Positions 477-54,733 of a stretch of 64,000 nt of DNA are shown here, piece by piece. The DNA comes from Leucoraja ocellata (lineage: Eukaryota): contig JAWMAR010000201.1 in NCBI GenBank assembly GCA_036785375.1, positions 310,001-374,000 of the forward strand, read 5' to 3'. The position numbers and the translations under genes were made by a program. Below the pieces are notes generated by a model that was given only the letters and a program-made list of their open reading frames with translations, was not told the DNA's origin and searched no databases. Each line of letters opens with the position of its first letter. Position 1 is the first letter of the stretch.

Positions 477-695
477 CTATAAAGGGTGGGATTTTCCATG
501 GGCTCGTCCTCTACCCTTGATTGAGGCAAAGTGTGGGATCCCAGAATAATTCACTGTTTCATACTCTTGGATCATGCTCTCCCTGGGGTTTCTGTGCCCT
601 CCTCGTCTGGCTGGTCCAGGAACTGGCATCACAGGAGATTTCACTGTGTCATATATGGTGGCAGGAATCTCCAGCCTCTCCTTGTTCTGAGCCTG
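477..695 (-). CDS. SLAM/CD2-family receptor, last coding exon (cytoplasmic, ITSM)
   Basis: Polypyrimidine tract + CAGCAG acceptor. Phase-0 frame QAQNKERLEIPATIYDTVKSP...IQEYETVNYSG...HPL*, stop TAG at 479-477. TIYDTV fits the ITSM consensus TxYxxV/I. Confidence 0.85.
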   Translation of the reverse strand, partial: QAQNKERLEIPATIYDTVKSPVMPVPGPARRGGHRNPRESMIQEYETVNYSGIPHFASIKGRGRAHGKSHPL

Positions 696-714
696 CTGAG
701 AAAGCAGAGAGAGT

Positions 715-1100
715 TCAGAGGATTAGAGTTTATAAATTATGAGAGCGTTAGATAAGACAGGCCGTCAGAACCTTTCTCCCAGGGTGGAAATGTCAAAGAT
801 TAGAGGGCATAACTTTAAGGTGAGCCGAGACTCAAAAGTGTTTAATTGTCATATGTATTGAAAACAGAAGAATTACATTCTTATTTGGAAGGGCAAATTT
901 TAAAAGAAATGTGCGGGACAATTATTTTACTCAGAGATGCTGGGTGCCAGTAATGCCCCACTTAAGAGGCTTTTTAACAGGCACAATTATGGATGGATGT
1001 GGATCACATACAAACAGAGATTAGTTTAACGTGGCTTCTTGTTCAGTGTTGATATTATGGGCTGCAGGGAGCTTGTTTCTATATGTACTGTTCTATATTG
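715..1100 (+). mobile_element. Degraded CR1 LINE 3' fragment
   Basis: Diverged similarity to the RT C-terminus/3' UTR of the younger CR1 copies in the window. Confidence 0.6.
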
Positions 1101-1147
1101 TCCTTAGTCACCCATTGCATGGGCAAATTCATGAAGGCGTAAACACT

Positions 1148-1312
1148 AACTAGGTGTGTGGGGGTACACAGTGTACCCCAGTAACTGGGTGTGTGAGGTC
1201 AATGTACCCCAGTAACTGTGTGTTGGGACAGTGTACCCCAGTGACTGGGTGTGGAGTCAGTCTACCCCAATCACTGGGGATTTGAGGGGGGGGGGGGACA
1301 GTGTATTACCAG
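1148..1312. repeat. Intronic minisatellite, ~30-bp unit (CAGTGTACCCCAGTAACTGGGTGTG...)
   Basis: About 5 imperfect tandem copies visible. Confidence 0.75.
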
Positions 1313-1616
1313 TGAGAGTGGAGATGGATGAAGCAGCATCTCCTGTCCAACCTGAAGTGGATGTTGCTGAGATAAGTTTCAGTCTGATCTGAATTTTTTT
1401 CATTGAGTGCTTGGGATATTTCTGTGCCTTGTTATTGCTTTGAACTGTGGCAGAGTTCGGTGAGAGCTTACTCAACTATGATTTCTAATTCAGTGTGAGG
1501 TTGTGTTGTGCCTATATGGGATTCTGTGTCCTGCCTGCTGCAGAGATAGTAAGGATGGCCCCAGAGAACTGAGGGGTTCAGATCGCCCATCCCTGAGGCA
1601 ATATGTGTCCCTTTAC

Positions 1617-1705
1617 CATCTCGTTCTCCTCCCGAGGCTGTCTGTTGGCTGGATGTCTCTGTGATGGCTGGGGTTGTGCATAGATAGTCTCCATGTTTGA
1701 TGGGC
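1617..1705 (-). CDS. SLAM/CD2-family receptor, cytoplasmic exon 1
   Basis: CTCTCCCCCACAG acceptor. Phase 1 frame (G)PSNMETIYAQPQPSQRHPANRQPREENEM; donor ATG|GTAAAG (phase 0), compatible with the last exon. Confidence 0.8.
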
Positions 1706-2155
1706 CTGTGGGGGAGAGTAAGAAGGATTAGTACCTGCCCTCACCACGCATCATCTCCTTTCCATCCCAGTCACTTTAACCCTCATCCCTGTCAACCATT
1801 CTATCCCTCCCCTCCTCACCCTTAGCCCTTCCCGATCTACCTCCTGATCATCCCAGTCCCTCCCACCTTTGTACTTCCTTCCCTCCCGATACTGCCCCCT
1901 TCCCCTACCTGCAATCAACCCTCGTGCTGTGACTCATTTCCCTTTCCAACCTTCATATTTCTCTGTTCTCAAATCTCTACCCCTTTTACCCACTATTCCC
2001 TCCCCTCACCACTTCCTCTTCTCCCTGAGTGCACCTTCTCCATTTCATCCTCTGTCCTCTCCTGCTCCAATTCATCATCTCCCATCTAGCACCATGTGCA
2101 GTCTTTCCTGGGACTGCGACCACTCTGGCTCATGGGCTGGGTATCAGATACTTGC

Positions 2156-2293
2156 CTCCAGTGACTAGAGCGTTTTGACCTCCTCCTGTTCTCCTCCTTA
2201 CGATGAAGCAGACCAGAAAAATGATGCAAACAGCTACACAAGCTGCAACAACCGAAATAATAATAATAATTTGATTCCATGATCTCCTTCGTC
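2156..2293 (-). CDS. SLAM/CD2-family receptor, transmembrane exon
   Basis: TTGTTTTAG acceptor. Phase 1 frame (G)RRRSWNQIIIIISVVAACVAVCIIFLVCFIVRRRTGGGQNALVTG = hydrophobic helix plus RRR stop-transfer; donor GAG|GCAAGT. Confidence 0.85.
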
Positions 2294-2619
2294 CTAAAAC
2301 AACAGAGGAGTCAAAATTTAATTATTCCATTTCCATTCTAGCTCTCCCACGGACAGAGAGTTGATGGGATCCATCTAGCCACATGGGTTTTGATGAAGTC
2401 CTCCATTAATACAGTTTCGGTGCCCTCAGTCCACCCTCTATTCACCCCTCAAAACATTCCCCTCCATCCCCACGTGGAATCCAAGGTGAGCTACCTAATT
2501 GGATCCAAAATTAGCTTGGTGATGGGAGGCAAAGGGTAAAGGTGGAAGAATATATTTTTGATAGGATGTATTTGACTAGTGGTGCAACATAAAGGTGAAA
2601 GAAGATGTTGGTTTACCAG

Positions 2620-2880
2620 AAAAAGATACAATGTGCTGGAATAACTCAGTGGGTCAGGCGGCATCTCTGGAGAACGTAGATAGGTAATGTTTCGGGTCAG
2701 AACCCTTCTTCGGACTGATTGTGGTGCATGGGGGAGGGGCGCATGGGGAATGCTGGATGAGTGCTGGGCAAAGCCAGGCAAATGATAGGTAGAAACAGGA
2801 AAGGGGGTTGATAGGCAGAAAGTTGGGCAAAGTCCAGCGATTTAAAAGACAAAAGGTGAGATAAGGATAGAAGAAATACT
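2620..2880 (-). mobile_element. Penelope-like element terminal fragment with degenerate hammerhead core
   Basis: Matches the recurrent GCTGGAG.AACTCAGCGGGT.AGGCAGCATCT...TTTCGGGTC..ACCCTTCTTCAGAC motif seen elsewhere in the window next to GIY-YIG remnants. Confidence 0.65.
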
Positions 2881-2889
2881 TTATTGTAT

Positions 2890-3430
2890 TTTAAATGTTG
2901 TTATGGTACCCGCTGCAACCACTTCATCAGGTTGCACATTCCATTTATGTACCACCTTCTGTGTGGAAAACATTGTCCAAACGTTTCCACTAAATCTTTT
3001 CCCTCGCACATTAAAGCTATGACTTCTAGTTCTTGATTCTAAAGCCCTGGAGAAAAGACCATGTTCACCCTATCTATGCTACACGTGATTTTATACACCC
3101 CTGTAAGATCACTCAGCCTCCTACTCTCCAAGGAATAAAGTTCTAGCCTGCTCTACTTCTCTGTCTTTTGAGTCATGTCAACGTCCTTGTACATCTTTCT
3201 GTACGCTTTCCAACAATGGCATATCTCCTATAGCATGTTGACCAAAATTGAACTCAATACCCCTAATTGTGGCTTCATCACGGTTTTGTACAACTGCAAC
3301 ATAGCATCCCAACTTCTATATTGAATGCCTATACTGATAAATGGCACAGTGCCAAAAGCCTTCTTCACCATCCTGTCAACCTGTGATGTTATTTTCAGGG
3401 AACTATGCACCTGTACTCAGTTCCTCTGTC
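2890..3430 (-). mobile_element. Old CR1 LINE RT/3' fragment
   Basis: ORF 3228..3410 (MHSSLKITSQVDRMVKKAFG...YRSWDAMLQLYK) resembles the CR1 RT C-terminus. Confidence 0.75.
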
Positions 3431-3701
3431 GTATGAGACCCTCCAGAGATCAATGTTATAATACGTTGATTAAGCCAGCTGGAATATATTGTGTACAATT
3501 TTGGCCATCACACTATAGAAAGGGTGTGATTTCACTGAAGCAGTGCAGATATTCACCAAAATGTCTGAGATTGAATGTTTCAGTTATGAGCGGAGACTGG
3601 ACTGGTTGGGATTCTTTTCTTTAGAGTGGAGGCGGCTGGGAGTGGAGGAGTACTATTATAGATGCATCACATTATGAGGGACCGAGATAGGGGAGATAGT
3701 G

Positions 3702-4290
3702 CAGGGCTCCCTTGGCAGCTTTTTAGGTTGCCAAATGACAATTTAGGTGGTCATTTGAGATGGCTTGCATGACGCGTGCGATAATGTGCTCGGACGAAGT
3801 GCGTAGTTACCAGTCAGAATTATACTCAATGAAGCATTCACATATTATTTCCGCTTCAAGTAAAGTCACTAGACATTCACAAAACTAGACATTCACCAAT
3901 CAAGACATGATATATCTCACAATGACATGCGGCAAAATTATAAGACAGTATCTCAACTCTTTTTACACATTGCGTTGTAATTTCTATTAGTTCTTTCCAC
4001 TTCCAAACAAAAATGTGGTTGGATTATTCAGCGTATGATCAACCCGTGTCAATAAATCCTGGACCATGGTAACATATATGCGTACGTATAGTTGTGAATG
4101 TTGCTCATTAAATAACTACAGTACTGATACTCCATATTAAGAGCATTGATTTGCCGTTAAAATGAATTCTGTATTAACTTGTCAACGGTAACAGTGACAA
4201 TCGAACACTGCGGTTTTAATGTTTCATGTGTTCACAATTTCATTAATCCATCTTTATAGATTAAAACAAATAATAACATTGGGAATTAAA
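3702..4290 (+). mobile_element. Second, truncated copy of the hAT-like element at 1-185, opposite orientation
   Basis: Starts CAGGGCTC, has a short internal deletion, then matches the reverse complement of 1-140. Right boundary approximate. Confidence 0.6.
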
Positions 4291-4299
4291 AGGCAGAAT

Positions 4300-4815
4300 G
4301 GTTAGAAGGCAGTCGGTGCAGAATGGATGGATTGAGGCAGGTGAATTAGTACGTGTTGGTTGGAGTAGGTAAAATTGTGAGGGGAGAGCACGGGTGATGT
4401 CAGTGGTGTTGAATGGAGGGTTCAGTACGGGATGGATGGGGGTAGACAAAAGTGCTGGAGAAACTCAGCGGGTGAGGCAGCATCTATGGAGCGAAGGAAA
4501 TAGGCAACGTTTCGAGTCGAGACCCTTCTTCAGACCTTTCCCCCCATTCTTCTTGAATGGGAGGATCAGTACAGGATGGATGGGGGGGGGGGGGGGGGGG
4601 GAGATCAGTGCAGGATGAATGGAAGGGGGGGGGTCAGTACAGTGTGGATCGGAGGGTCAGTGCAGGATAAATGGGGAATCACTACAGGATGAATGGGGGA
4701 AGGTGCAGTGTAAATGGAGGGTGGGCCAGTACGGGATGAATGCGTGGATTAGTACAGGATGGATGGGTGAATCAGTACAGGATAGATGGAGGAGGTGCAG
4801 GATGGATGGGAAAGG
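4300..4815. repeat. Degenerate G-rich minisatellite (~23-bp CAGTACAGGATGGATGGGG unit) interrupted by a Penelope terminal piece at 4441-4535
   Basis: Repeated CAGT(A/G)CAGGAT(G/A)GATGG cores. Confidence 0.7.
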
Positions 4816-5039
4816 GGTAAGTATCTTGTAGCGGGAACAGCCCCCTCCTTTGCGTAGTTTCCCTTGCATTGTATTGCTTTAACACACACTGCACAAAATT
4901 AAATTTAACGTATACATTTATATGTGAGAGGCAAGTTAGAGATAGTTAAGTTTATTCTCATGGATCAGAAGCAACTTTGATTTAAATAATCACTATTAAT
5001 TTATTTGTCTTGTAAGATGATATACATAAACCATAAAGG

Positions 5040-5332
5040 NNNNNNNNNNNNNNNNNNNNNNNNNNNNNNNNNNNNNNNNNNNNNNNNNNNNNNNNNNNNN
5101 NNNNNNNNNNNNNNNNNNNNNNNNNNNNNNNNNNNNNNNNNNNNNNNNNNNNNNNNNNNNNNNNNNNNNNNNNNNNNNNNNNNNNNNNCATATGGATACA
5201 TTTNNNNNNNNNNNNNNNNNNNNNNNNNNNNNNNNNNNNNNNNNNNNNNNNNNNNNNNNNNNNNNNNNNNNNNNNNNNNNNNNNNNNNNNNNNNNNNNNN
5301 NNNNNNNNNNNNNNNNNNNNNNNNNNNNNNNN
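5040..5332. other. Assembly gap (N runs with a 15-bp island at 5189-5203)
   Basis: Ns in sequence; lies in the intron between C2 copy B and the TM exon. Confidence 1.
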
Positions 5333-6512
5333 GTAGAGGAACCAACGAGAGAGCAGGCTATTTTAGACTGGGTATTGAGTAATGAGGAAGGGTTAGTTAG
5401 CAATCTTGTTGTACGTGCCCCCTTGGGCAAGAGTGACCATAATATGGTTAAGTTCTTCATTAGGCAGGCAGTGACTAGTGGGGTACCACAAGGCTCAGTG
5501 CTGGGACCCCAGCTATTTACAATATATATTAATGATCTGGATGAGGGAATTGAAGGCAATATCTCCAAGTTTGCGGATGACACTAAGCTGGGGGGCAGTG
5601 TTAGCTGTGAGGAGGATGCTAGGAGACTGCAAGGTGACTTGGATAGGCTGGGTGAGTGGGCAAATGTTTGGCAGATGCAGATGCAGTATAATGTGGATAA
5701 ATGTGAGGTTATCCATTTTGGTGGCAAAAACAGGAAAGCAGACTATTATCTAAATGGCGGCCGACTAGGAAAAGGGGAGATGCAGCGAGACCTGGGTGTC
5801 ATGGTACACCAGTCATTGAAAGTAGGCATGCAGGTGCAGCAGGCAGTGAAGAAAGCGAATGGTATGTTAGCTTTCATAGCGAAAGGATTTGAGTATAGGA
5901 GCAGGGAGGTTCTACTGCAGTTGTACAGGGTCTTGGTGAGACCACACCTGGAGTATTGCGTACAGTTTTGGTCTCCAAATCTGAGGAAGGACATTATTGC
6001 CATAGAGGGAGTGCAGAGAAGGTTCACCAGACTGATTCCTGGGATGTCAGGACTGTCTTATGAAGAAAGACTGGATACACTTGGTTTATACTCTCTAGAA
6101 TTTAGGAGATTGAGAGCGGATCTTATAGAAACTTACAAAATTCTTAAGGGGTTGGACAGACTAGATGCAGGAAGATTGCTCCCGATGTTGGGGAAGTCCA
6201 GGACAAGGGGGTCACAGCTTAAGGATAAGGGGGAAATCCTTTAAAACCGAGATGAGAAGAACCTTTTTCACACAGAGAGTGGTGAATCTCTGGAACTCTC
6301 TGCCGCAGAGGGTAGTCGAGGCCAGTTCATTGGCTATATTTAAGAGGGAGTTAGATGTGGCCCTTGTGGCTAAGGGGATCAGAGGGTATGGAGAGAAGGC
6401 AGGTACGGGATACTGAGTTGGATGATCAGCCATGATCATATTGAATGGCGGTGCAGTCTCGAAGGGCCGAATGGCCTACTCCTGCACCTAATTTCTATGT
6501 TTCTATGTTTCT
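5333..6512 (+). mobile_element. Young CR1 LINE, internally deleted, 3' end intact
   Basis: APE end (PTREQAILDWV...SDHN) fused to RT (GVPQGSVLGP, FADDTKL); (TTTCTATG)n tail. Confidence 0.92.
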
Positions 6513-7751
6513 ATTATTTTCCAACGATCAATAGATTTACGATCAGTTCCTGTGGATTGGAGGATAGCTAATGCTATCCCACTTTTCAAGAAAGGAGCGA
6601 GAGAGAAAACGGGGAATTACAGACCAGTTAGCCTGACTTTGGTGGTGTGAAAGATGCTGGAGTCAATTATTAAAGATGTAATAATGGGGCATTTGGATAG
6701 CAGTAAAAGGATTAGTCCAAGTCAACATGGATTTATGATTTTACAATGCATTTAAGCCTCTCCCATTTTTATGAGATGAATTCCTGGAATATGTAGGAAG
6801 TTTATTGTAACCTTCTCTAGGATCTTTGTTTGCAAGTAACGGCCGCTATCAGGGCGGGCGGGGTGCGGGAGGAGGAGGAGATGGAGCCGCTGTTCGGTGC
6901 CCGTCATTCGCTTCGACCCTTCGTCACCACGCACCTAGTATCTTTCTCACGCAATACAGCCGTCACCGCCGACACAAAACGTCTCGTTCCCTTTCTCCTG
7001 AGATGCTGCCTGACACGCTGAGTTACTCCAGTTTTTTGTGTCTATCTTCGGTACAAACCAGTATCTGGTTGCCAAGCCGGGCAAAATGACTCGGTGTTTG
7101 GTTGCCCAGCGGCGCTTTGAGTGGTCAATGGCACCCAGGCAACCGTTAATTTCGAGCCCTGTAGTGTGAATAGATTTTTCTAATAGAAGATATATATTTA
7201 AGGAGAGTAGTGAAAGGTTATAGAGGATCTGTGGAAGATTTGTTTCGCCTGGAGGGCAGACAAAATCTGAAACACACTCCCTAAGTAGGTGGTGGGGCAA
7301 ATATTCTCACAGTATTAAAGCCTCTGGGCAAGGGCATAAATTTCCAAGGCTAGAAAGCTATGATCAAGTACTGGTCCCATTGGGCCAACTATACAAACAT
7401 TTACAACCACGCACTACCAGCCCAGGACTCTAACTCAGGAGTCAAACTACTGAATGGTCCACCCATAAGCCAGGTATAATCCTGATCTTGCAATCTACCA
7501 CATTGCCAACATTTGACTTTTTCTTTGAAACTAACATTACAATGCTGCAAATATATATTCTGCATTCCGGTATTTTTCTTTTTGCTTGTGTATAGCTTGA
7601 TTGTAGTTATATATATGTTTAAGAAGGAACTGTAGATGATGGAAAATCAAATGTAGACAAAAATCCTGGAGAAACTCAGCGGGTGAGGCAACATCTATGG
7701 AGCGAAGGAAATAGGCAACATTTCGGGTCGAAACCCTTCTTCAGTCTGAAC

Positions 7752-10232
7752 ATGTTACCCACATTATTCTACATTTGTTAGATCATTGCCTGCTCACTTA
7801 ACTTGCCTTATTAGCCTTTAATAATTACCTTATGCTCACTTCATAACTTACTTTCCTACGTTTTGGGCCTTTTACACGAGTCATGTTAAAATTCATATAC
7901 TGGTGGAGGCTCCAGAACGAGCCCTTTGGCAATATTATATGTTGTTCATTTATGCCTACTCTGTTTCCTGTTATCCTGCCAGTCTTCTGTTCACTCCAAC
8001 ACAAATTCTGCTGCACTACAAGCTTTTATTTTCTTCAATAACGTTTGATGGAACATCTCCATGAAATGCCTTATGGAAATCTAATAACAGTGCACCTTCA
8101 TTGGTTTCTGTTCCTTCTTGTTTGTAACAAAGTGCCCTAAGACACATTTCTTCCCTCAGTGATTCTCTCTGGAGCTAACTTATTTCACATAGATTCAAAT
8201 TGCAATTTCACTTTTTGTATTTTGGACCCACCCAAGCTTGCAGGTCTGTTCAGCATGATGTTGAATAAAAGTTTGGAATCCTACAGTTCCAGCATGGATT
8301 TCTTTCTCTCTTCTGTAATTCATCTCCTATTTGCACCTTCTACAGCCAGGTTCTGTACAGAAAACAAGTATTCACCATCTCTCAGCCAGCATCACCATCG
8401 CCTCTGTTATGTGTGTGTCTCTCTGTCGCTATCATTGGCATTCTCTCAGTATTTCCGATTCCACCTCTCTGTCACATAAAATACATTTGATTTCTAATTT
8501 TTCCAATTTCTGACATAAAATCATCGACCTGGAATGTTGGTTATCTTTCTCTCATATCGTTGGCTGTTGAACCGTTGGAGCATTTCCAATATCTTCTGTT
8601 TTTATTGCATATTTCCAAAATCAGCAGTGTGTTTCACTCACCCGATGTGGCCTGTTTGCAGTCGTCCGTCAGCCAGATCTGGGCCGTGCCCTTACTGACC
8701 AGGTTCCTGGCCTCACACTTGTACTCAACGTCCCCGACCCCTGCTGTGTGATGAACCTCTATCGTCTCTCCGTGTCGCCAGGGGTGATGAGTGCTGCCGT
8801 TTCCCAGAGGTTCTTGTCCCTTCCACCACCTGAAGCTGGTGGGGTTGCCAGAGGTCACGGAGCAGGTCAGCTTGCAAATCCCGGTGATGTTCTGAATCTT
8901 AATCTGTGTTCCTGCCATGGGCTCTGAGGTTGCGGCAGAGAGAAGAAAGATGAATAAAGGAGATTCTTGTGGACCCCTCAATACCCAACACCCCGTCTCC
9001 AAGAGCCACGTGAACATTAAGCCACTCCCAGCTAATTTCCACCCACCAGTTTAACTCTTCCCTGCCCCCCCCCCCTTCAGTTCAGCGAGTTGTTGCTGTG
9101 AGAAGTCCACACGTGATGCGCCCTCTTCACATCCACCAACTCTCCACCATGTCCTGCTTATGGCTCTGTATCTTAAGTGATAGGAGTTGAATTAAACCAT
9201 TTGGCCCATCAAATCTACTCCACCATTCAATCATGGATGATTGAACCTGGGGATTCTCTCCAGGCGCAGGGTTTTTTTCACTTCCTCAAAAGGTCCCTGC
9301 GTCCCTTGTGCACCTGAGTGTGACCCAGCCCAGACCGGTCCTGAACCTGATCCAAGAGTGTCAGCCCTGTGACTGTGATGAGCACAGACCCAGACTGGGA
9401 TAGTGTGCCATGTTCCAGAGTGAATCCAGCACCATGCAGATCCTGGGTCACACACCGTCTCCCCCACAGAGACTGAAACAGCTCACAAATCGGGGGTGTA
9501 AATAGCAAGTTGTTCCCAGTCTTGTGATGGGACACATTCTGAGAGGGGAACCAAGTTGTCAGAATGGAGAAAATGTCAAAATGGACAGAGCAGAGATCTG
9601 GGGCTGCAGAGTCACCCTCACTGAAAGCAGATACATGGGCAGGGAAATCTCCTGATCACTGCCCCCCCCCCCCCCCCCCCCCCCCCATCCTCAGCAGATG
9701 AACTAGCTCTACCCCATGTTGGACCACACTTAGAATGCGTCCTGAGACCAGCAAAGGCCAGAACGTCCTCTAGGTGGGGATTTCAATGTCCAACATGGGA
9801 GTGGGTTGGTAGCACCTCCACAGACTGAGCCTCCAACTCCTGAGGGACAGCGGGCCATGGTGGGCTGCGACCAGGGATAATCTGGCCTGACCTGGCCATC
9901 CCCAGGCTACCAGTGGCAGGTGCATCTGTCCCTGACACCAATGATGAGACTTATCACTGTACAGTCCTTGTGGAGACAAGTCTGGTCTTCACACCAAAGG
10001 CTCATCCCCATCATATTGTGTGGCACCTACAATTGAGCTCAGTGGGAGAGGCTCAGAATAGATCATGCAGCTGACAACTGGGGTCTATGCGTTCCTGTGG
10101 ATAGCAGCAGAACTGTCCACCACGCAGACTGTAACCTCATGGTTCACGCCACCATTCCTGTCACCGAGGGGGGGTCAACCCTGGTTTACTGAGGAGCGCA
10201 GAGGACATGAAGCAGCACCAGGTGGAGATAAA
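7752..10232. repeat. Tandem segmental duplication unit B (contains C2 exon B)
   Basis: Colinear, high identity with 10607-14120 across intron and exon. Confidence 0.9.
8642..8923 (-). CDS. SLAM/CD2-family receptor, Ig C2 exon copy B
   Basis: 282 bp, CAG acceptor, G|GTGAGT donor, phase 1/1. (E)PMAGTQIKIQNITGICKLTC...FRWW...YKCEARNLVS...DDCKQATS has the four Cys typical of CD2/SLAM C2 domains. Confidence 0.88.
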
Positions 10233-11487
10233 CACGACAATGTTATATTCACAAATATGGCTTTATTTTCTCCCTATGTGAACAACACACGTAAATATTA
10301 TTTTATTTACTCCCTTGCTGGGTCAGCAGAGCTTGAGAGACATTATAAACACACATCAAGCAGGATTAAAGAGGGCCTTAAATTGTTCAGTTCCAGCTGC
10401 ATTCTTAAGTAAAAACCAAAAATGCTGAAAATAGTTAGAAGGTCAGGCCGCATCTGTGGCAAGAGAAACAGTTAATATTTTAGGTTGAAGACTCGTCTTC
10501 AGTCATAGTCTTTGACCTAACGTCTGTATGACGTTATGACTGCAATCACTTACTAGTTGGGTAATGTGCTTCTTTGTTATTCTTCCTGCAAATATTAAAC
10601 AATTTACCATGTTATTCTACATTTGTTAGATCCTTGCCCGCTCACTTATCTTGCCTTATTATCCTTTAATAATTACCTTATGTCCACTTCATATCTTACT
10701 TTCCTACATTTTGGGCCTTTTACACGAGCCATGTTAAAATTCATATACTAGTGGAGGCTCCAGAACGAGCCCTATGGCAATATTATATGTTGTTCATTTA
10801 TACCTACTCTGTTACCTGTTATCCTGCCAGCCTTCTGTTCATTCCAACACAAATCCTGCTGACCTACAAGCTTTTATTTTCTTCAATAACTTTTGATGGA
10901 ACATCTCCATCAAATGCTTTATGGAAATCTAATAACAGTGCACCTTCATTAGTTTCTGTTCCTTCTTATTTGTAACAAAGTGCCCTAAGACACATCTCTT
11001 CCCTCAGTGACTCTCTCTTTGGAGCTAACTTATTTCGTGTAGATTCTAATTGCTATTTCTCTTTTTGTATTTTGGACACACCTAAGCTTGCAGGTCTGTT
11101 CAGCGTGATGTTGATTAAAAGTTTGGAATCCTACAGTTCCAGCATGGATTGTTTTCTCTCTTCTGTAATTCATCTCGTAATTGCACCTTCTACAATCAGG
11201 TTCTGTACAGAAAACAAGTATTCACCATCTCTCAGCCAGCATCACCATCGCCTCTGTTATGTGTCTCTCTGTCGCGATCATTGGCATTCTCTCTGTATTT
11301 CCGATTCCACCTTTCTGTCACATAAAATACATTTGATTTCTAACTTTTCCAATTTCTGACATAAAATCATCGACCTGGAATGTTGGTTATCTTTCTCTCA
11401 TATCATTGGCTGTTGAACCATTGGAGTATTTCCAATATCTTCTGTTTTTATTGCATATTTCCAAAATCAGCAGTGTGTTTCACTCAC

Positions 11488-11769
11488 CCGATGTGGCCTG
11501 TTTGCAGTCGTCCGTCAGCCAGATCTGGGCCGTGCCCTCACTGACCAGGTTGCTGGCCTCACACTTGTACTCAACGTCCCCGACCCCTGCTGTGTGATGA
11601 ACCTCTATCGTCTCTCTGTGTCGCCGGGGGCGATGGATGGTGTCGTTTCCCAGAGGTTCTCCTCCCCTCCACCACCTGAAGATGGTGGGGTCGCCAGAGG
11701 TCACAGAGCAGGTCAGGTTGCAAATCCCGGTGATGTTCTGAACCTTAATCTGTGTTCCTGCCACGGGCT
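11488..11769 (-). CDS. SLAM/CD2-family receptor, Ig C2 exon copy A
   Basis: 282 bp, CAG acceptor, G|GTGAGT donor, phase 1/1. (E)PVAGTQIKVQNITGICNLTC...YKCEASNLVS...DDCKQATS. Confidence 0.9.
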
Positions 11770-12580
11770 CTGATGTTGCGGCAGAGAGAAGAAAGATGAG
11801 TAAAGGAGATCCTTGTGGGACCCTCAATACCCAACACCCCGTCTCCAACAGCCACAAGTGAACTTTAACGATCCCAGCTCATTTCCACCCACCAGTTTAA
11901 CTCTTCCCTCCTCTTCACTTCAGTTCAGCGAGTTGTTGCTTTACGAAGTCCACACGTGATGCGCCCCCTTCCCAACTACTGACCGCAATTATCCACCAAC
12001 TCTCCACCATCTCCTGTTTATGTAGTGTATCATAAGTGATAGGAGTAGAATTAAACCATTTGGCCCATCAAATCTACTCCGCCATTCAATCACGGATGAT
12101 TGAAGCTAGGGATACTATCCAGATGCAGGGTTTTTTTTTCACTTCTGCAAATGGTCCCTGTGTCCCTTATGCACCTGAGTGTGACCCAGCCCAGACCGGT
12201 CCTGAACCTGGTCCTAGAGTGTGAGCCCTGGGACTGTGATGGGCACAGACCCAGACTGGGATAGTGTGCCATGTTCCAGAGTGAATCCAGCATCATGCAG
12301 ATCCTGGGTCTCACACCGTCTCCCCCACAGAGACTGAAACAGCTCACAAATTGGGGGTGTAAATAGGAAGTTATTCCCAGTCTTGTGATGGGACACATTC
12401 TGAGAGGGGAACCTACGAGTCAGAATGGAGAAAATGTCAAAAGGGACAGAGCAGAGATCTGGGGCTGCAGAGTCACCCTCACTGAAAACAGATACATGGG
12501 CAGAGAAATCACTGTACAGTCCTTGTGGAGACAAGTCTGGTCTTCACACCGAACGCTCATCCCCATCATAATGTGTAGTA

Positions 12581-13923: not shown

Positions 13924-15729
13924 TACCTACAATTGTGCTCAGTGGGAGAGACTCAGAAGAGATCATGCAGCTGACAACTGGGGTCCATGCGGTCCTGTGG
14001 ACAGCAGCAGTCTGTAACCTCATGGTTCACATCACCATTCCTGTCACCGAGGGGGTCAACCCTGGTTCACTGAGGAGCGCAGAGGACATGAGGAAGCAGC
14101 ACCAGGTGGAGATACACATAACGAGGTGCCAGCCTGGTGAAGCTGCGACAGAGGACAACATGGGAGCTCATCAGCAACAACAGCCGCAAAAAAAGAGCTG
14201 AGGGACCTCGCAGCCTTTGGCTCGGTCAAAGCTCTACAGTCCTACTTACTACATCTGAACATGAATAGTGGTGGACAATTCAACAGCTCATCGAATGCAG
14301 CAGCCAAAATAGCATCCCCACCCTCAGCGATAATGTGACCCAGCATGTGAGTACTGGAGACAAGGCTGATCATTTACAACCTCGATCAGTCAGAGTGCTG
14401 AAGTGGATAATCTCTGTTCTTCTGAGATCCTACCGTCACAGAAACCAGTTACCAGACAATTTAGTTGACTGAATGCAAGATCATGTTTATAAGTTATAGG
14501 AGCAGAATTAGGCCATTTGGCCCATCATGTCTAGGTCGCCATCTAAATCACAGTTGATCTATCTTTCCCTCAAACTCATTCTCCTGCCTTCTCCCCATAA
14601 CCTCTGACACCTGTACTAAAGAATATATCACTCTCCGCCTTAAAAATATCCATTGACTTGGCCTCCAAAGCCTCCTGTGACAGATTCATCACCTTCTGAC
14701 AAAATTAATTCCTCTTCATCTCCTATCTAAAGGTACTATATGTCCTTTTATTCCGAGGCTATGGCCTCGGGTCCTGGACTCAATCATTAATGGAAACATC
14801 TTCTTCACATCCAGTGTATCCAGGTAACAGCAGAGGGCCGCTATACATACCCAGCTCCAGGCAACATCCCAGCTATAGTACGTAGTGAAGACATGTACTC
14901 CTGAAGTCGGGGCACGTCTGGCCAAGTTGTTTTTGCAACATTGGCATCCAGTGACAATGAAAAATTGCCCTCATGTCTGCTGTTCAAAAACAGGATGAAT
15001 CCAATCAGCTGATCACCTTCCAATTGATCTACTCTAGATCAGCAGCAAAGTAAGAGAGGAGCTATTGGTGACACTTTTCTCATGCAATAACCTGCTCACT
15101 GAAGTTGAAGATCTTATCTGAAGATCTCATCACGGCTTTGGTCCAAGACTGCAACGAAGAGCTGAGTTGCAGAGGCTGACTGTCCTCAACATCAACGCAT
15201 TGTTTGACTGAGTGACATTAGGGAGCCCTTATAAAACTAAAGTCAATGAACATCCAGAGGTTAACACTCTGACATGTAGCCACACCTCACACGGAGGAAG
15301 ATGGTTGTGGTCATTGGAGGTCAGTCAACCCAGCCACAGGTCATCACTGCAGGTGTTCCACAGGGCAGTGTCCTGGGCCCAACCAGCTGCTTCATCAATT
15401 ACCTGCCTGGCATTGCAACATTTGATTGATGATGGCACAATGTTCAGTTCCATTATCAACTCAACTGCATGCAGCAGGACCCAGAGAACATTCAGGCAGG
15501 GGCTGATAAGTGGGAAGTTTGCAACCACGTAATGGAAGTGTCAGCAGGAGACAGCCCAGTGCTTGAGACTCAATGATTCTCCCAGCAGCAAGTCCCACAT
15601 CATCAAAACAACGGAACAGCAACTCAACAATACTAATCACACATACTCTGTGGCTATTGGAGAAAGTTTGAGGATGGGTATCCCGTAGGAGTGAATCACT
15701 TCCTGACACCCTGACCTTTCCCCGTCTAC

Positions 15730-16177
15730 AGGGCATGCGTCTAACGCGACCAAACATGGTCGCTTGAGGCGTACGGCCGCGCGGGTCCCACTTCGAACTG
15801 CTGAGGCGTATGGAGTTGTGCGGGACTGGTCCGGACATCATACTCGCCAATCAGCTGGGCAGGCGGGCCGACTGAATTTGGACGTCGTACGGCGTCGGGC
15901 GGTGACGTCATCAAACAGCAGCACACCGGGTGGTGACATCATCACGCAATGCCACGCGCTAGGAGTGCGCCGTCAAGCCGCTGCATACGCCATCAATCCA
16001 CCTGCGGGCCAACAGGCCGTTGGCGCGCGGAATTTTCAACCATTCCGCGGGATTTTCGGAGCCCTGCGCGATATCGGGACCAGCCCCACACAACTCCATA
16101 CGCCTCCGCGGTTGAAGTGGGTCCAGCCCCGCGCGGCGGTACGCCTCAAGCAATCGCATGCTGGTGGGACAAGCCCT
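15730..16177. mobile_element. PIF/Harbinger-like MITE, left end degenerate
   Basis: Right end GGTGGGACAAGCCCT followed by TAA; long internal inverted repeats (GGCGTATGGAGTTGTG / CACAACTCCATACGCC); CpG-rich. Confidence 0.55.
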
Positions 16178-16896
16178 TAAAGGAACGTGACCTTTCCTCA
16201 TTTACAGGACATGTCAGGAGTGTAAGGGAACACTCTTCAAATATCTGGGTGAGTGCAGCTCCAACATCTCTCGAGAAATTTTCATCACCTGCAACTGAAG
16301 CAGCTGCTTAGTCAGATCCCTACCCACTTCCCAAAATACTCCCACCCTCCATCAGCCTAAGTACTTCCTCCCCCATCCTAATATCATCCTTCTGCCACTC
16401 TAAACACTCCCACCACCACCCCAAGCATTCCCTCTGTCCAATCCCTAAACATTCCATCCCTCTATGGAATGGGATAAAGAAGGGTCTCGACCCAAAACAT
16501 TGCCTATTTCCTTTGCTCCATAGATGCTGCCCCACCCGCTGAGTTTCTCCAGCATTTTTGTCATCCCTCTATCAATGTGGGTGGTGTGTATGTAATCCAG
16601 AAAATTCACCCGGGAGCCTGGAACAAATTCCTTCCTCATGGAGCAGTGGGAACGTGGGAACCGTTGACGGTTCGATGCTTCACGGCCCCTGGCCCAATGA
16701 CCGGGGATGTGGTGCGCCTGTCCCCCAGCCTAGCACTGCCCCAGTCCCACTACACTGGGACCGTGACGCCCACTCTACATACTGGCATTCAGTGGGGTTC
16801 AGTAAACTGGGGAACGCACAGGATCTGCCCTCGCCCATTAATTAGAGCGGTTCAGGAGCCGGTGAAAGCCGGAACATCCGCGGCAGTCTCACTCAC

Positions 16897-17753
16897 TAGC
16901 AATGTTACAAAATTTTGAGATTTTAAAAATCAAGTCTGCAATTTATCCCATCAGATAAAGCATAACAATAAGTTTAATTTGACACCAAATTCACTTTCAT
17001 ATCTCAAGTATTAAAAAAGGTATGGCCATTTTCATACTCGGAAATTAGCATCTTGTTCCCTATTGATTTTCAATGGACATTACAAATAAGCTGTGATCGT
17101 AGACAGTCAAAAGCCCATTTCTTAAGGAAAGATTAACATTTTTAAATAGCCTAAGTGTCCAAAGATTATTCACAAATAATTCACAATATAACATGATTTT
17201 TATATCTAATTTACATTAATTTATAGGCCAAATGGAAGGAATTTAGTGTTCAATTGCTGTAAATAAATGCCCATTTAAATCGGCTTTCTAGTGGGTTCAT
17301 GTGAACGCGCTGGTTTAGAACGTTCGCATCGCGCTGGATTAGTGCCCTCAAATGCCGAGAAAAATACTGCGGGATATAAAAAGCCCAAAATGAACTACTC
17401 GCTATAACTTTAATTACAGGGTTATATACATGCCCCATTTAATGTAAAAATAAGGTACATACCTTTAATTGTTTGCTTTATAAAACCCTGGGGCTGCGAG
17501 AGGTTGCGGAGTGAGACAGTAATTTTAAAACTATTATAACTATTATTCGAGGCCTATAAAACTAATAATACCTTTTGCGACCCGGTCTTGCAGCGATTTT
17601 TCGTTAATGATTTACTAGGCTGAACATCTGCGATTAGAACAGCCTAGTAAAAATCGCGTTTTAAACCCGCCCCCTCCAAACAGCGCCAAAATCGCGGACA
17701 TGGCTTTGGGCAGATTCCCAATGACAATTCAGGTAGGTTTTGTAACATACCTA
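16897..17753. mobile_element. Non-autonomous DNA transposon with TAG...CTA ends and 3-bp TSD (Academ-like)
   Basis: Imperfect TIR TAGCAATGTTACAAAA / TTTTGTAACATACCTA; CAC duplicated at 16894-96 and 17754-56. Superfamily inferred from termini and TSD length only. Confidence 0.7.
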
Positions 17754-17760
17754 CACTCAC

Positions 17761-18078
17761 CGTACACCTCCAGTCGGACTCCCGCTGAAGTTGTAACTCC
17801 TGAACTTGTAATAACAACCACCTGGTAATCACCAGCATCATCTCTCCGTAGACCACGGATTTCCAGACTGAAGTTCCCGCGGTGAAGAGTTACCCGTCCA
17901 TTGTAATTGGTGGTATAGTATTTAATATTCTCAGCCGAGTACTTGGCTATCTTGGTGCTGGCTGATGTCCGGCTCCACTCAACGCTGCCAACATCCGGTG
18001 TGACTGTGATCCCAGCAGGTAAGGAGACCGAGTGTCCCCGAGCTCCAGTCACGGTGCCAGCGGCGGCCCCAGTCCCAG
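17761..18078 (-). CDS. SLAM/CD2-family receptor, Ig V-set exon
   Basis: 318 bp, CTCCTCAG acceptor, TACG|GTGAGT donor, phase 1/1. Motifs GHSVSLP, VEW, YNGRVTL..NFSLEI..LRRDDAGDY, LEVY; no B/F-strand Cys, as in CD2/SLAM N-terminal domains. Confidence 0.92.
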
Positions 18079-19039
18079 CTGAGGAGACAAGAGAGGCAGT
18101 CAGCAGGAGAGCTCGGTGACTGGAGGAGGAATCGGAGCTGGGAGAATCACAGAGCACAGGAGTAGGCCATGGGGCCCATCGTCTGTCTCCAGGCTCTGTG
18201 AGAGACCCGGCCCACAGTTCCTACATCACATAGTGAGCCCACGGGGGGAACAGAGTGAAGACTTTCTGCACCGGGGCCGAGGAAAGAAGTTACTGCCTGC
18301 AGCCAGATATAGACGGATGGGTCAGGGGGAACAGACACGGCAAATGGGATCTGGTCTGAAAAGTAGCGATGGGGTGAGTTTGGAGAGAGTGAACATGGTG
18401 GAGGAACGGGGTAAATAGGACTTTGTGTGTGTGTGTGTGATATGGGGGGGGGGGGGGGGACAAGGAGCGGACCCTTGGAGTGCACTTATACAGATCTCTA
18501 AAAGAGGAAGTGAGGACAGGTGGGTGACTGAATACCACACAAGCAACTGGATCAAAAGGTGAGAGCACACGATCCAGGGAAAATTGGCAAATCGGATGCA
18601 AATTTATCTGGGTGATTGGAGGCAGAAGATATTGGGAGAGGGTTGGTTTTGTTATTGGAACCCTGTGACCAGTCGTGTACTGCAGGGATTGTTGTTGTGA
18701 TTCTTACTGCCCGACTACAGTAAAAAGGAGGTTGAAGTTTGCAGATGACACAAAAAAAATCAGTGGTGTCATTGATCGGAGCATAGTCATAGACTGCAGA
18801 ATATACTGTTCAATTGTTAAGATGGGCAGAGCGATTACAGGTGGAATTTGCGCCTAATAAGTGCAAAATTAGATATTTTGGGAAGAGTTATAAAATTAGG
18901 ACATATTAAGAATGGTAGGATCATAAGCAGTGTCGAAACACAGAGGGATCTTGATATACTCGTCCAATGATCTCTACTGGTAGTAGCACAGGTGGATATG
19001 GTGGTGAAGGTATACGGAATATTTTCCTTAATTGATTGG

Positions 19040-19545
19040 ACATAGGTTCACCTGCACTTTGTCTAACCTCATCCACTGCATCTGGTGTTCCATGTTGCCT
19101 CTTTTACATCAACAGGATGCAGCATAGATTAGGCAACCATTTTACCGAGCACTAGCGCTGGGTCTGCCAAGGCCTGCTGCATCTCTTGGCTGCTAACTAT
19201 TTTTAAATCCCATGGGCCTTTCTGTCCTGTTCCTCCTCCATTGTCAAAATGAGGCCACATGCAAGCTGGAGGATAGCACCTCAAATTCCACCTGTGTAGC
19301 TTACAACCTAATGGTATGAACATAGAATTCTCCAATATTAGGTAACTGTTCTGTCCTGGCCGCTGTTCTTTTCCACATTATCCCCGCACACCCCATTTCC
19401 CAGCACAATCAGTCTGGAGGATGGGTTCCAAGACAAAATGTCACCTATCCATGTTCACCAGAGATGCTGCCCGCAGCAGTTACTCCAGCACTTTATATCT
19501 TTGGTTCTTTTTTTAGTAAACCAGAATTTGCAGTTCCTTATATCT
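19040..19545 (+). mobile_element. Degraded Penelope-like element (GIY-YIG remnant plus terminus) inside old CR1 fragments
   Basis: TCTLSNLIHCIWC...RLGNHFTEH-type remnant followed by the terminal motif. Confidence 0.65.
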
Positions 19546-20360
19546 CCATACCAGAAGTGTCAGAGGTTATGGGGAAAAGGCAGGAGAATGGGGTTAGGAG
19601 GGAGAGATAGATCAGCCATGATTGAATGGCAGACTAGACTTGATGGGCCGAATGGCCAAATTCTATTATAATTTCCGACCTTATGACTATAGATCTTCTT
19701 TACGCTTGATCTACTTGTGTTGTCACTTTCGGGGAGTTGCGCATTTGAACCCCAAGATCCCGCAGTACATCAATACTGTTAAGAGTCTTGCAATTAACAA
19801 TATACTTTTCCCTTACATTGGCCTTCCCAAAATGTAGCACCTCACCCTTGCTTAGTTAGATCCAACCACCTGCCATTTCACTGCTCATTTCTGTAGTTGA
19901 TCTATATTCTGCTGTAATCTTTGACACCTTCCTCACTATCTGCAACTCCACCAATATAAAACGTTATATATAATATTAAACACCCAACACACATCCTTTT
20001 GGAACTCCATTGGTTACAGACCTCCAGCCAGAATAACACTCTTCCCCCACAACCTTCTGCCTTCTATGAGTGAGCCAGTTCTGAATCTGAATGTCCAAGT
20101 CACTGTTGATCCCATGAATCTTAAATCAGGCACTTCAGCCCAGTGCTACGAAACTACCTGGCTTAACACCTCTCAATTCCAAACACCAACCATTTGCTGG
20201 TGAAAAAGCTCTTCATTTATTGTGTATTCCCAACCTTGTTTTGCCTCTCCAAACATTTCAGCCCACACCTCTCTGGAGTAAACTTAATTTCCCTGCCCAG
20301 CTGACCAGATTTCTCCTCCTCAGTTCTTCTTTCTCCTCATTGTCAACGACACATAATTTT

Positions 20361-20505
20361 NNNNNNNNNNNNNNNNNNNNNNNNNNNNNNNNNNNNNNNN
20401 NNNNNNNNNNNNNNNNNNNNNNNNNNNNNNNNNNNNNNNNNNNNNNNNNNNNNNNNNNNNNNNNNNNNNNNNNNNNNNNNNNNNNNNNNNNNNNNNNNNN
20501 NNNNN
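20361..20505. other. Assembly gap in intron 1 of the receptor gene
   Basis: Ns in sequence. Confidence 1.
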
Positions 20506-21239
20506 TCCTCCTCCGTTTGCGTGTGCGTGCGAGGAACTGTCTCTGCTGTGTTGTGCCATTCTGTTATTAGACAGTTCACTTGGAGTTGGAGTTCATTACT
20601 GTTATCTATCAGAGCTGATGGTCTGAATGCCCAGAGCCCTGTTGGTCAGAAGCTGCTGTCTGGGTGCAATGAGCTGGTTCTGATAGGGAGGGTGTTTGGT
20701 CAAACATTGCATCAAATGGAGGCAGGAAGTGGTTCAGCCTCAGAACACTTTGTTGAACAAGAAGTATGTGAAGCGAAAAATAGAGCTGGACTGCGGATGT
20801 AAAGCGAGAGTAGTGGAATGGTGGAGGGCGGGAGGGGGAGGGAGGGGGGGGGGGCAGGGAGAGAGAGAGAGATAGCGAGGCACAAATGGCAATACAATGT
20901 TAACTGCAGAGCGGTTTGTGGAGATGTCAGGAACCAGCAGAAAGAGACAGAACTGGGGAAAGAGGCACAGAAATAGGGTCAGTGAGAGAAGGAGTGTTAG
21001 GTTAGAGAGCGAGATAAAGAGAGATAACATCAGCAGAATGTAAGAGGGGCTGTGAATGACAGAGAAAGGGACAGAATGAGAAACCAGTTTGTCCCACCTT
21101 TATGACAGTGTGGCAGCATTTGGGATAGCATAAAGCCAGGAAATGACCACAATGGGTTGAATGGCCCTTATATGCACCGAAAACCTGCACAAGCCTCACA
21201 CTCATTGATAACCAGTTGATCATTAATATCTGTACTTAC

Positions 21240-21306
21240 CTACACAGAAGGCGATGAGGGATGCACAGAGCAGGGAGGGGATCCTCCTCAAAGAAAAGTG
21301 CCACAT
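21240..21306 (-). CDS. SLAM/CD2-family receptor, signal-peptide exon
   Basis: ATG at 21306; MWHFSLRRIPSLLCASLIAFCV; perfect G|GTAAGT phase-1 donor joining in frame to the V exon (..FCV-A-GTGAAAG). Confidence 0.85.
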
Positions 21307-30174: not shown

Positions 30175-30175
30175 A

Positions 30176-54678: not shown

Positions 54679-54733
54679 ATGGACTTCAGGTGCCTGCCAA
54701 TCTCCTTCTGGCTCGTGCTGGCCATTTCAGACT
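54679..54733 (+). CDS. Candidate exon, possibly the signal-peptide exon of a second gene (downstream exons not identified)
   Basis: ATG-initiated MDFRCLPISFWLVLAISD with a phase-1 T|GTAAGT donor. An alternative reading as a decayed DENN exon is given in findings. Confidence 0.3.

Follow-up and report, generated by a model that had tools for sequence, protein, structure and literature searches.

A skate SLAM-family receptor gene with an ITSM and an ITIM consensus in its tail, and its putative pairing with short-tailed neighbours

The window analyzed here, a stretch of 64,000 nt from the skate Leucoraja ocellata, contains a minus-strand gene whose seven exons (21306 down to 477) join without stop codons to encode a 464-amino-acid protein with a leader, one V and two C2 immunoglobulin (Ig) domains, a transmembrane (TM) helix and a cytoplasmic tail (Table 1). 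The intron phases are 1-1-1-1-1-0, in agreement with the original prediction of seven exons joined in frame. Further in-frame ATGs lie upstream of 21306, which leaves the start codon of the model unfixed. The donor 3' of the TM exon is GC instead of GT, as in the two paralogous TM exons inspected, and the acceptor of the last exon is a tandem CAGCAG. The gene cannot be put down to chance, because its exons match annotated skate proteins and motif shuffles rarely reproduce the tail.

Table 1. Features of the receptor gene and its surroundings (positions in the window)
Feature	Position	Strand	Remarks
Exon 1, leader	21240..21306	-	Hydropathy and homology suggest a signal peptide
Exon 2, V-set Ig domain	17761..18078	-	0 Cys; Pfam V-set 2e-13, Receptor_2B4 3.7e-6, both passing the cut-off
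Post-V intron stretch, probable conversion tract	16188..16896	-	3.0% divergence from neighbour vs 6.2% in other shared intron stretches
First copy of 1.9-kb tandem duplication, holds C2a	10612..12510		92% identical to 7764-9649
Exon 3, C2a	11488..11769	-	Four Cys (145, 149, 198, 217); phase 1-1
Second copy of 1.9-kb tandem duplication, holds C2b	7764..9649		92% identical to 10612-12510
Exon 4, C2b	8642..8923	-	Four Cys (239, 243, 292, 311); phase 1-1
Exon 5, uncharged TM helix	2156..2293	-	Followed by GC donor
Exon 6, cytoplasmic	1617..1705	-	Eroded ITSM TIYAQP at 1671-1688
Exon 7, cytoplasmic to stop	477..695	-	Acceptor at 695 or 692
TIYDTV (exon 7)	642-659	-	
QEYETV (exon 7)	552-569	-	
VNYSGI (exon 7)	537-554	-	
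Next paralogue's leader exon	54679..54732	+	Its V exon lies just past the window end

A 492-nt contig of run X3, which comes from a related organism and is labelled 'RNA? probably DNA', maps to 426-691 and 2156-2267 with 90 letters in between that correspond exactly to exon 6 plus one base; this spacing supports use of the GC donor and, at the tandem acceptor, of the downstream position 692. A joint at the V donor (17761) is present in runs X3 and X4, probably derived from a paralogue. Among the predicted junctions, leader-V, C2a-C2b and C2b-TM are spanned by none of the reads shown. For the raw reads of X12, X13 and X16 (related organism; ~5-6% of each run read, exon coverage ~2x or less) the tables are filled by repeats, with no exon joint among the rows listed, and no RNA record is listed as carrying the last exon.

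The closest proteins are RefSeq entries of skates named 'SLAM family member 5-like' (83% in V, 94% in TM and tail), which bears out the predicted origin from a cartilaginous fish. The SLAM family is defined by a Cys-less V domain, a four-Cys C2 domain and an ITSM (PMC12084948). The cysteine counts of V, C2a and C2b (0, 4 and 4) match this signature, as had been predicted, and the four Cys of each C2 would form its two disulfides. The best PDB matches are CD2, SLAMF5, SLAMF6 and CD48, and the top eight Foldseek rows comprise CD2, CD48, NTB-A and CD58; CD2 is both the best single-sequence PDB match and the best fold match for the ectodomain. The AlphaFold model, which has a mean pLDDT of 53, depicts the orthologue from Amblyraja and was used solely to set strand limits and to search by fold, and a phmmer search of structures with C2b alone found no CD2/SLAM structure. 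The tail of CD2 is proline-rich and carries no ITSM; the CD2-type proline-rich motif (PPPxH/PPPP) was not found in the skate tail, which has four tyrosines instead.

CEACAM proteins come close in the profile search (CEACAM1 7.8e-12, behind SLAMF6 at 6.7e-13), and their N domains likewise have no disulfide, which counts in favour of a CEACAM origin. In a 41-row tree built without curated CD2, CD58 and SLAMF1-9 rows, the predicted separation from CEACAM is seen in that the CEACAM rows form a starred branch of their own (96/97), and is weakened in that the elasmobranch clade adjoins this branch (92/81, unstarred) on an unstarred backbone. The locus lies on one contig with COPA (861 kb), NCSTN (895 kb) and PEX19 (913 kb) and with an FcR-gamma-like exon (592 kb), that is, in a cluster within a 1q23-type block (COPA, NCSTN, PEX19, FCER1G) as expected for the SLAM family. 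No linked VANGL2 was found, VANGL being found only on contig C85 together with CASQ, a pair that marks the CD2-side paralogon. On the four-Cys C2, the ITSM and the COPA-NCSTN-PEX19 linkage, we assign the gene to the SLAM family rather than to CD2 or CEACAM, as originally proposed. This call is an ordinary one, since orthologues are already in RefSeq as SLAMF5-like or Ly9-like. Orthology had been considered indeterminable by eye; that holds with respect to any tetrapod SLAMF, and among batoids orthology can be resolved via the tail.

All three tail motifs named beforehand are found in their predicted places. TIYDTV is the one canonical ITSM that had been announced and the sole ITSM of the tail. 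Of the two supposed variants, TIYAQP is indeed an eroded ITSM that has lost Val at +3 (TIYAQV in the Rhinoraja and Pristis orthologues, a final Pro also in Amblyraja, Ala in Mobula); QEYETV, with no Thr and with Glu at -1, is not an ITSM. The fourth tail tyrosine, within VNYSGI, adjoins QEYETV and fits the ITIM consensus; it had been overlooked. When the tail was shuffled 100,000 times, 2.0% of the shuffled versions held an ITSM and 0.12% held both an ITSM and an ITIM. The ITSM is retained in all seven aligned long-tail orthologues and the ITIM in five of them, and TM and tail are 94% identical to Amblyraja, compared with 80-83% for the Ig domains.

The gene sits among 14 V exons, which would reduce to 11 loci should one block be a copy from the other haplotype. 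A neighbour at 287-261 kb of the contig (C201) has a V domain 91% identical in amino acids, with 11 nucleotide differences in the V exon, joined to an Arg-led TM helix and a tail that shows no tyrosine in its matched part. In the assembly this neighbour looks damaged: its first C2 has a 1-nt deletion, its second C2 is truncated and its tail end is altered. A CD3-zeta-like exon has also lost one nucleotide, which suggests indel errors in the assembly. The pairing of long and short tails on one type of V recurs in Amblyraja (98% V identity) and Rhinoraja (87%), where the partners are automatic gene models that could be chimeric. A near-identical binding domain on opposite tail types, as in paired receptors, is found at 91%, 98% and 87% and in a second pair. 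Short-tailed members from rays, turtle and gecko, and a shark-like one, likewise begin their TM with a basic residue.

The V domains cluster by species or cis-neighbour, and the tails and C2 domains by gene type. In the V tree, long- and short-tailed members join within species (98/95, 97/95, 92/93), and the AU test rejects a V clade of long-tail orthologues (p=0.0027). In the second pair, eight informative sites of V group by cis-neighbour and none by gene type, as opposed to none and ten in C2 (AU p=0.005 and 0.016). The post-V intron stretch of Table 1 differs from the neighbour at 21 of 709 positions, compared with 258 of 4145 in the other shared intron stretches (p=3e-4). These comparisons suggest that the near-copied V domains of neighbours likely arose by gene conversion, and the conflict between V and C2/tail trees reads as a paired-receptor signature, with concerted evolution of the binding domain. 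Conversion happens in any tandem array, which tells against this reading.

The V differences from Amblyraja fall mainly on the front face (15 of 18, on a face of 46 of the 105 positions; p=2e-4). None of 21 V pairs was significant in pairwise dN/dS (lowest p=0.061), and C2 diverges as fast as V. A V-V homodimer prediction, with the alignment not used, scored 0.00 and speaks neither for nor against such a dimer.

The two C2 domains, which differ at 15 residues, lie in a 1.9-kb tandem duplication, and the second is a recent duplicate; V-C2-C2 is not a family trait, orthologues being V-C2. A haplotype artefact was ruled out (8% divergence with indels, whereas identity within the block suspected to be a haplotype copy is mostly 96-99.8%). 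The dN between C2a and C2b (0.078) equals the intron divergence (5.5-7.5%), so that little purifying selection is visible, and their dN/dS is not significant (p=0.17).

With respect to candidate adaptors, the genome contains two SH2 exons with SAP as best match (6e-16 and 3e-12) in a survey in which 58 of 130 matches were read and 150 of 196 candidates scored; the SAP-like matches are exon 1 fragments only. A third SAP-family candidate, L113, is ambiguous, with SHP-2 first and EAT-2 as its best single-domain match. The TM motif of the neighbours is CxxR, without Asn and with Arg at the helix edge; NxxR is the TM motif shown to bind FcR-gamma (PMC2413239).

Taken together, the gene probably codes for a type I receptor of the SLAM family whose ectodomain has one V and two C2 domains and whose tail carries an ITSM and an ITIM consensus. 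On skate leukocytes it likely serves as a SAP-versus-phosphatase switch, and it is likely the braking member of a set paired with short-tailed neighbours that would signal through FcR-gamma. A ligand would be contacted through the GFCC'C'' face of V and the tail tyrosines phosphorylated, whereupon SAP would bind TIYDTV or, otherwise, SHP-1/2 would dock at the ITSM and ITIM. The Arg at the TM start of the neighbours would bind an adaptor, presumably FcR-gamma, making them activating decoys as in other paired receptors; a pathogen ligand would drive V diversification between species, and gene conversion would copy the diversified V onto the activating partners. More tentatively, we envisage a SLAM-based arms race in skates, in which pathogens exploit the V domain of ITSM/ITIM-tailed members, FcR-gamma-coupled short-tailed decoys are kept by repeated V-exon conversion, even per haplotype, while the gene for FcR-gamma itself lies in the cluster, and the extra C2 and eroded first ITSM are recent moves.

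It is possible, if somewhat doubtful, that this is a SLAM receptor of the usual kind whose cluster evolves by birth and death, with V homogenization a neutral by-product of the tandem array and the short-tailed genes being SLAMF8/9-like ligands or adhesion molecules rather than activating decoys. The dN/dS values not significantly above 1, the missing NxxR, the reach of the conversion tract into the intron and the chance that the immediate neighbour is a pseudogene are compatible with this account, as are the short, ITSM-less tails of mammalian SLAMF8/9 (PMC12084948). Against it, exchange in the second pair affects V alone and leaves C2 and tails untouched, it connects long-tailed with short-tailed genes in three genera of skates, and the basic TM-start residue is shared by short-tailed members as far apart as rays and gecko.

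The product may be mostly V-C2, one C2 exon being skipped or decaying, which we consider unlikely: both C2 exons are phase 1-1 cassettes diverging at the intron rate, orthologues have one C2 or none, and the C2a-C2b joint is in no read, but both exons have stayed in frame and, despite their 15 replacements, have lost neither the splice sites nor the four Cys nor the Trp pair, and gene models with V-C2-C2 or V-C2-C2-C2 exist in three other batoids. Improbable as well is a tail that acts as a PD-1/BTLA-like phosphatase dock with SAP in a minor role; it would fit the ITIM conserved in most long-tail orthologues and the first ITSM eroded in three genera, but TIYDTV has the hydrophobic -1 residue named as a requirement for SAP switch binding (PMC12151841), and SAP-like exons are in the genome. 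That the gene belongs to CEACAM or another Ig-superfamily group resembling SLAM is very improbable despite the close profile scores, the adjacent branch and V-exon conversion between paired receptors being a CEACAM trait (PMC5112662), and is already largely refuted by the COPA-NCSTN-PEX19 linkage. The separate CEACAM branch and the four-Cys C2, compared with two Cys per C2 in CEACAM sequence P0111, also speak against it.

In mammals, the SLAM family comprises nine mostly self-binding receptors. The skate gene shares with SLAMF1-9 (CD150, CD84, SLAMF6, 2B4, Ly9) the Cys-less V, four-Cys C2, ITSM and a cluster beside NCSTN/COPA (PMC12084948, PMC4718992; mouse SLAM genes are co-listed with NCSTN/COPA in one chromosome 1 QTL table, PMC6894729), but is V-C2-C2 rather than V-C2 or V-C2-V-C2 and has no one-to-one orthologue in the 41-row tree. 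CD2 resembles it in the ectodomain, with a proline-rich motif in place of tyrosine motifs in the tail. The SLAMF5-like isoform X2 of Amblyraja radiata (P0009) has the leader, V, C2 and TM segments of the skate gene and also its four-tyrosine tail. That protein and the orthologues from Rhinoraja (P0011), Pristis (P0019) and Hemitrygon (P0026) bear automatic names and are not studied genes; the two C2 exons set the present gene apart from them, and its first motif, like that of P0009, has Pro as its last residue where the other three have Val. The gene by itself adds little, since annotation of SLAM-like genes already spans the elasmobranchs and shark T cells are reported to contain Slamf6/sh2d1a-like transcripts (PMC10529500, PMC11372145). 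What is new, and more interesting than the gene itself, is the V-exon cluster with its paired short-tailed neighbour: the accessible parts of SLAMF reviews contain no skate-lineage expansion with V-exon exchange across tail types, and neither SLAM clusters of elasmobranchs nor gene conversion within SLAM pairs is the subject of any paper that we found in a literature whose subscription journals were mostly outside coverage. Xenopus also has an expanded CD2/SLAM family with Arg-led TM helices, of the NxxR rather than the CxxR type (PMC4536121), for which the parts of the sources available to us mention no gene conversion between pairs. The nearest likeness is to the CEACAM paired receptors (human CEACAM1/3; Xenopus, PMC5112662), in which conversion adjusts the binding domain between ITIM/ITSM and activating members amid between-species diversification, but in another family and locus, and with activators that own an ITAM-like motif, unlike the tyrosine-free skate tails, which would need an adaptor. 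If the pairing holds, the cartilaginous-fish SLAM family would have gone the same way as CEACAMs, Siglecs and LILRs, conversion-maintained paired receptors would extend to the oldest jawed lineage, pointing to an unknown skate pathogen ligand, and skates would offer defined, testable pairs with V of identical type, opposite tails and an adaptor gene next door.

The seven-exon receptor gene is almost certainly a member of the SLAM family, an identity decided by the genes with which it shares its contig, C201. The mammalian SLAM cluster at 1q23 is flanked by COPA, NCSTN, PEX19 and FcR-gamma genes, and the skate contig, on which the window occupies 310-374 kb, carries the first three and an FcR-gamma-like transmembrane (TM) exon (see table). 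One mouse chromosome 1 QTL lists Ncstn, Copa, Cd84, Ly9 and Slamf7 together (PMC6894729), and FcR-gamma has been mapped to 1q23-24 (PMC4536121). VANGL was not found linked to the focal cluster and lies instead with CASQ on contig C85. The FcR-gamma-like exon sits in the SLAM cluster region, with a distant SLAM-like gene (500-544 kb) on one side and four orphan C2 exon repeats (606-624 kb) on the other.

The V domain matches the Pfam families V-set (2e-13) and Receptor_2B4 (3.7e-6), and among solved structures CD2 and SLAMF5 match it best. A search profile drawn from nine relatives gives its top ranks to SLAMF6, a CD48/CD2 chimera and CD2, CEACAM1 following closely (6.7e-13 to 7.8e-12). For the Amblyraja orthologue, a structure model of low confidence (pLDDT 53) was used in a Foldseek search, which places CD2, CD48, NTB-A and CD58 within the first 8 rows and a CEACAM at rank 23. 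All 16 named proteins among the 17 found with this V domain are from skates and rays, the closest two being from Amblyraja (83% and 81%); names in the whole set include SLAM family member 5-like, Ly-9-like and CD48-like. The originally predicted SLAM/CD2-family receptor is upheld, as SLAM family, by V matches, nearest batoid proteins and synteny. The phylogeny proposed as a check gave a divided answer. The V-C2 tree, of 41 rows, separates the CEACAM-like rows as a branch by themselves (96/97) and puts the focal gene inside batoid (100/97) and skate (100/98) clades. The fork that sets the elasmobranch clade beside the CEACAM branch is unstarred, and the tree ties the gene to no tetrapod SLAMF with support; its rows were chosen by a profile of our own, with automatic labels and curated CD2, CD58 and SLAMF1-9 rows absent.

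Features of the focal gene and its surroundings (plain numbers are window positions; C numbers are contigs)
Feature	Location	Strand	Remark
Exon 1, leader	21306-21240	minus	in-frame join
Exon 2, V	18078-17761	minus	in-frame join
Exon 3, C2a	11769-11488	minus	in-frame join
Exon 4, C2b	8923-8642	minus	in-frame join
Exon 5, TM	2293-2156	minus	in-frame join
Exon 6, tail	1705-1617	minus	in-frame join
Exon 7, tail	695-477	minus	in-frame join
Leader exon of next cluster paralogue	54679-54732	plus	
Transposon fragments	5333-6740, 25000-26100, 27900-30100, 30175-32003, 43800-44900		classes by eye
COPA	C201 861-865 kb		
NCSTN	C201 895 kb		
PEX19	C201 913-916 kb		
FcR-gamma-like TM exon (L141)	C201:592449-592535		best match FcR-gamma
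Repeat with V-exon piece, example copies	C43:1527032, C172:3387050, C53:1132819, C201:1313147		

As anticipated, the exons join in frame, with compatible phases (1-1-1-1-1-0), into a product of 464 amino acids; further in-frame ATGs lie upstream of 21306. Every acceptor has AG and five donors have GT, and the donor after the TM exon is GC, a family trait that also follows both paralogous TM exons inspected. Reads from a related organism support some of the junctions. A 492-nt contig from sequencing run X3, labelled 'probably DNA', aligns to 426-691 and 2156-2267, and the 90 letters between are exon 6 (89 nt) plus base 692; it is what a TM-exon 6-exon 7 transcript, or a processed copy of one, would give if splicing chose the GC donor and, at the last exon, the second AG of CAGCAG, sites that the Amblyraja gene model uses too. 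No read showed the leader-V, C2a-C2b or C2b-TM joint, and a read joint with its end at 17761 is probably that of a paralogue.

Orthologues of the focal gene have a single C2. C2a and C2b lie within a 1.9-kb tandem duplication whose copies are 92% identical; they differ by 18 nt and 15 residues, and both retain frame, splice sites and four cysteines. Their dN (0.078) equals the divergence of the flanking introns (5.5-7.5%), with dS at 0.032 (p=0.17). Other elasmobranchs have V-C2-C2, V-C2-C2-C2, V-V-V and V-C2-V-C2 gene models, so shuffling of phase 1-1 exon cassettes is usual in these genes. The extra C2 would make the receptor longer and the cell contact wider.

On contig C201, 13 full V exons lie from 7 to 486 kb and a fourteenth, more distant, at 540 kb; all 14 are open. 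An inverted copy of bases 1-103 kb occupies 121-252 kb on the other side of an N gap, with mostly 96-99.8% identity; because SH2 matches also come in pairs, this block is probably a second haplotype, which leaves 11 loci. Both haplotypes were apparently kept in the assembly, inflating gene counts. Several tail types occur: that of the focal gene, one with TVYAQV and SVYDTI, and a short one with a TM starting CWLR and a tyrosine-free tail. Three related Ig-like exons of another family, possibly FcR-like, also lie in the cluster (C201:89212, 108460, 134354). Transposon debris, LINE-type reverse-transcriptase remnants among it, fills the introns and remainder of the window (classes by eye). About 295 bp of a cluster gene, comprising the 3' half of a V exon and about 110 bp of intron (closest paralogue C201:169 kb, 88%), sit inside a repeat that is dispersed, seems not to code for protein, measures up to about 1.9 kb and is sharply bounded on one side; it has 16 matches in the genome, 12 of them inspected (L121-L132), and looks like an exon captured by a non-autonomous mobile element.

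Under the consensus definitions of PMC12151841, the only ITSM of the tail is TIYDTV, the one canonical motif originally foreseen; its -1 residue is hydrophobic, a feature that the same source ties to SAP switch binding, and the site remains an ITSM in all seven aligned long-tail orthologues. Of the two supposed variants, TIYAQP is an eroded ITSM: the last residue is Pro in this gene and in Amblyraja, Ala in Mobula, and Val or Ile in Rhinoraja, Pristis, Hemitrygon and Narcine; QEYETV does not qualify, with no Thr at -2 and Glu at -1. Overlooked was the next tyrosine, VNYSGI, which matches the ITIM consensus and is retained in 5 of the 7 orthologues. TM and tail are 94% identical to Amblyraja, against 83% for V and C2a and 80% for C2b. 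Human has two SAP/EAT-2-type genes; here, among 58 of 130 SH2 matches, SAP is the best match of two SH2 first exons (6e-16, 3e-12) and a third is ambiguous. These three first exons of the SAP/EAT-2 family are L114 (C153), L112 (C109) and L113 (C175), the last sharing its contig with a CD3-zeta-like TM exon.

The next gene downstream (C201 287-261 kb) is of the short tail type, and its V exon differs from the focal one by 11 nt (9 residues). Long and short V domains are 98% identical in Amblyraja and 87% in Rhinoraja, the partners in both being automatic gene models; compared with the focal V, those of the long-tailed orthologues are 83% and 79% identical. In the V tree, each species has its long and short members joined (98/95, 97/95, 92/93), and an AU test on V rejects a clade of long-tailed orthologues (p=0.0027; three species, 2e-5). 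Between the neighbours, the intron shows a difference of 3.0% directly after V, versus 6.2% elsewhere (p=3e-4). The pattern recurs in a second pair, formed in the two duplicated blocks by the short gene and the ITSM-tailed gene, whose leaders differ: informative sites in V group by cis-neighbour (8, with 0 by gene type and 1 otherwise) and all 10 in C2 by gene type (AU tests, p=0.005 and 0.016). These p values are somewhat flattered because the groups were defined when the protein tree had already been seen. The focal V differs from that of Amblyraja at 18 positions, 15 of them on the C-C'-C'' and F-G strands, which make up 46 of 105 positions (p=2e-4), with strand limits taken from the weak structure model.

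Against a working pair, no test gave a significant dN/dS, and the divergence of C2 keeps pace with that of V. The Xenopus motif shown to bind FcR-gamma is NxxR (PMC2413239), whereas the skate short type has CxxR, at the helix edge. The short-tailed neighbour may be a dead gene: in the assembly its first C2 has lost 1 nt, its second C2 is truncated and the end of its tail is altered. Assembly indel errors are hinted at by a 1-nt loss, likely of that kind, in the TM exon L142 (C175:2976731), which is CD3-zeta-like by its Pfam match; the other short gene (C201 236-222 kb) has open C2, TM and tail exons.

Structure, motifs, locus, partners and tree conflict are observations. In SLAM receptors, V binds ligand and ITSM tyrosines become phosphorylated; SAP then acts in one of two ways, by recruiting Fyn or by blocking SHP-1/2, whose binding takes place when SAP is absent, and several SLAMs additionally bind microbes (PMC4718992, PMC12084948). 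The focal receptor would use the same SAP/phosphatase switch with one ITSM, which we consider likely, and its ITIM would tip the signal toward braking. The Arg-led short-tailed paralogues may signal via FcR-gamma. A pathogen ligand would push V divergence and gene conversion would hold the decoys in step with it, following a proposal made for Xenopus CEACAMs (PMC5112662). The chances of a functional paired system are about even; the whole account, a SLAM receptor with switch and paired neighbours, is modestly favoured.

The focal gene is an additional member of a known, already annotated family. A search of mostly open-access literature found no publication on SLAM clusters of elasmobranchs or on conversion of V exons between paired SLAM genes. 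Shark Slamf6 and sh2d1a-like transcripts have been published (PMC10529500, PMC11372145), and a white shark MHC figure shows a slamf gene (PMC10751288). The CD2/SLAM families described for Xenopus (PMC4536121) share with the skate cluster both their expansion and the presence of members with an Arg-led TM.
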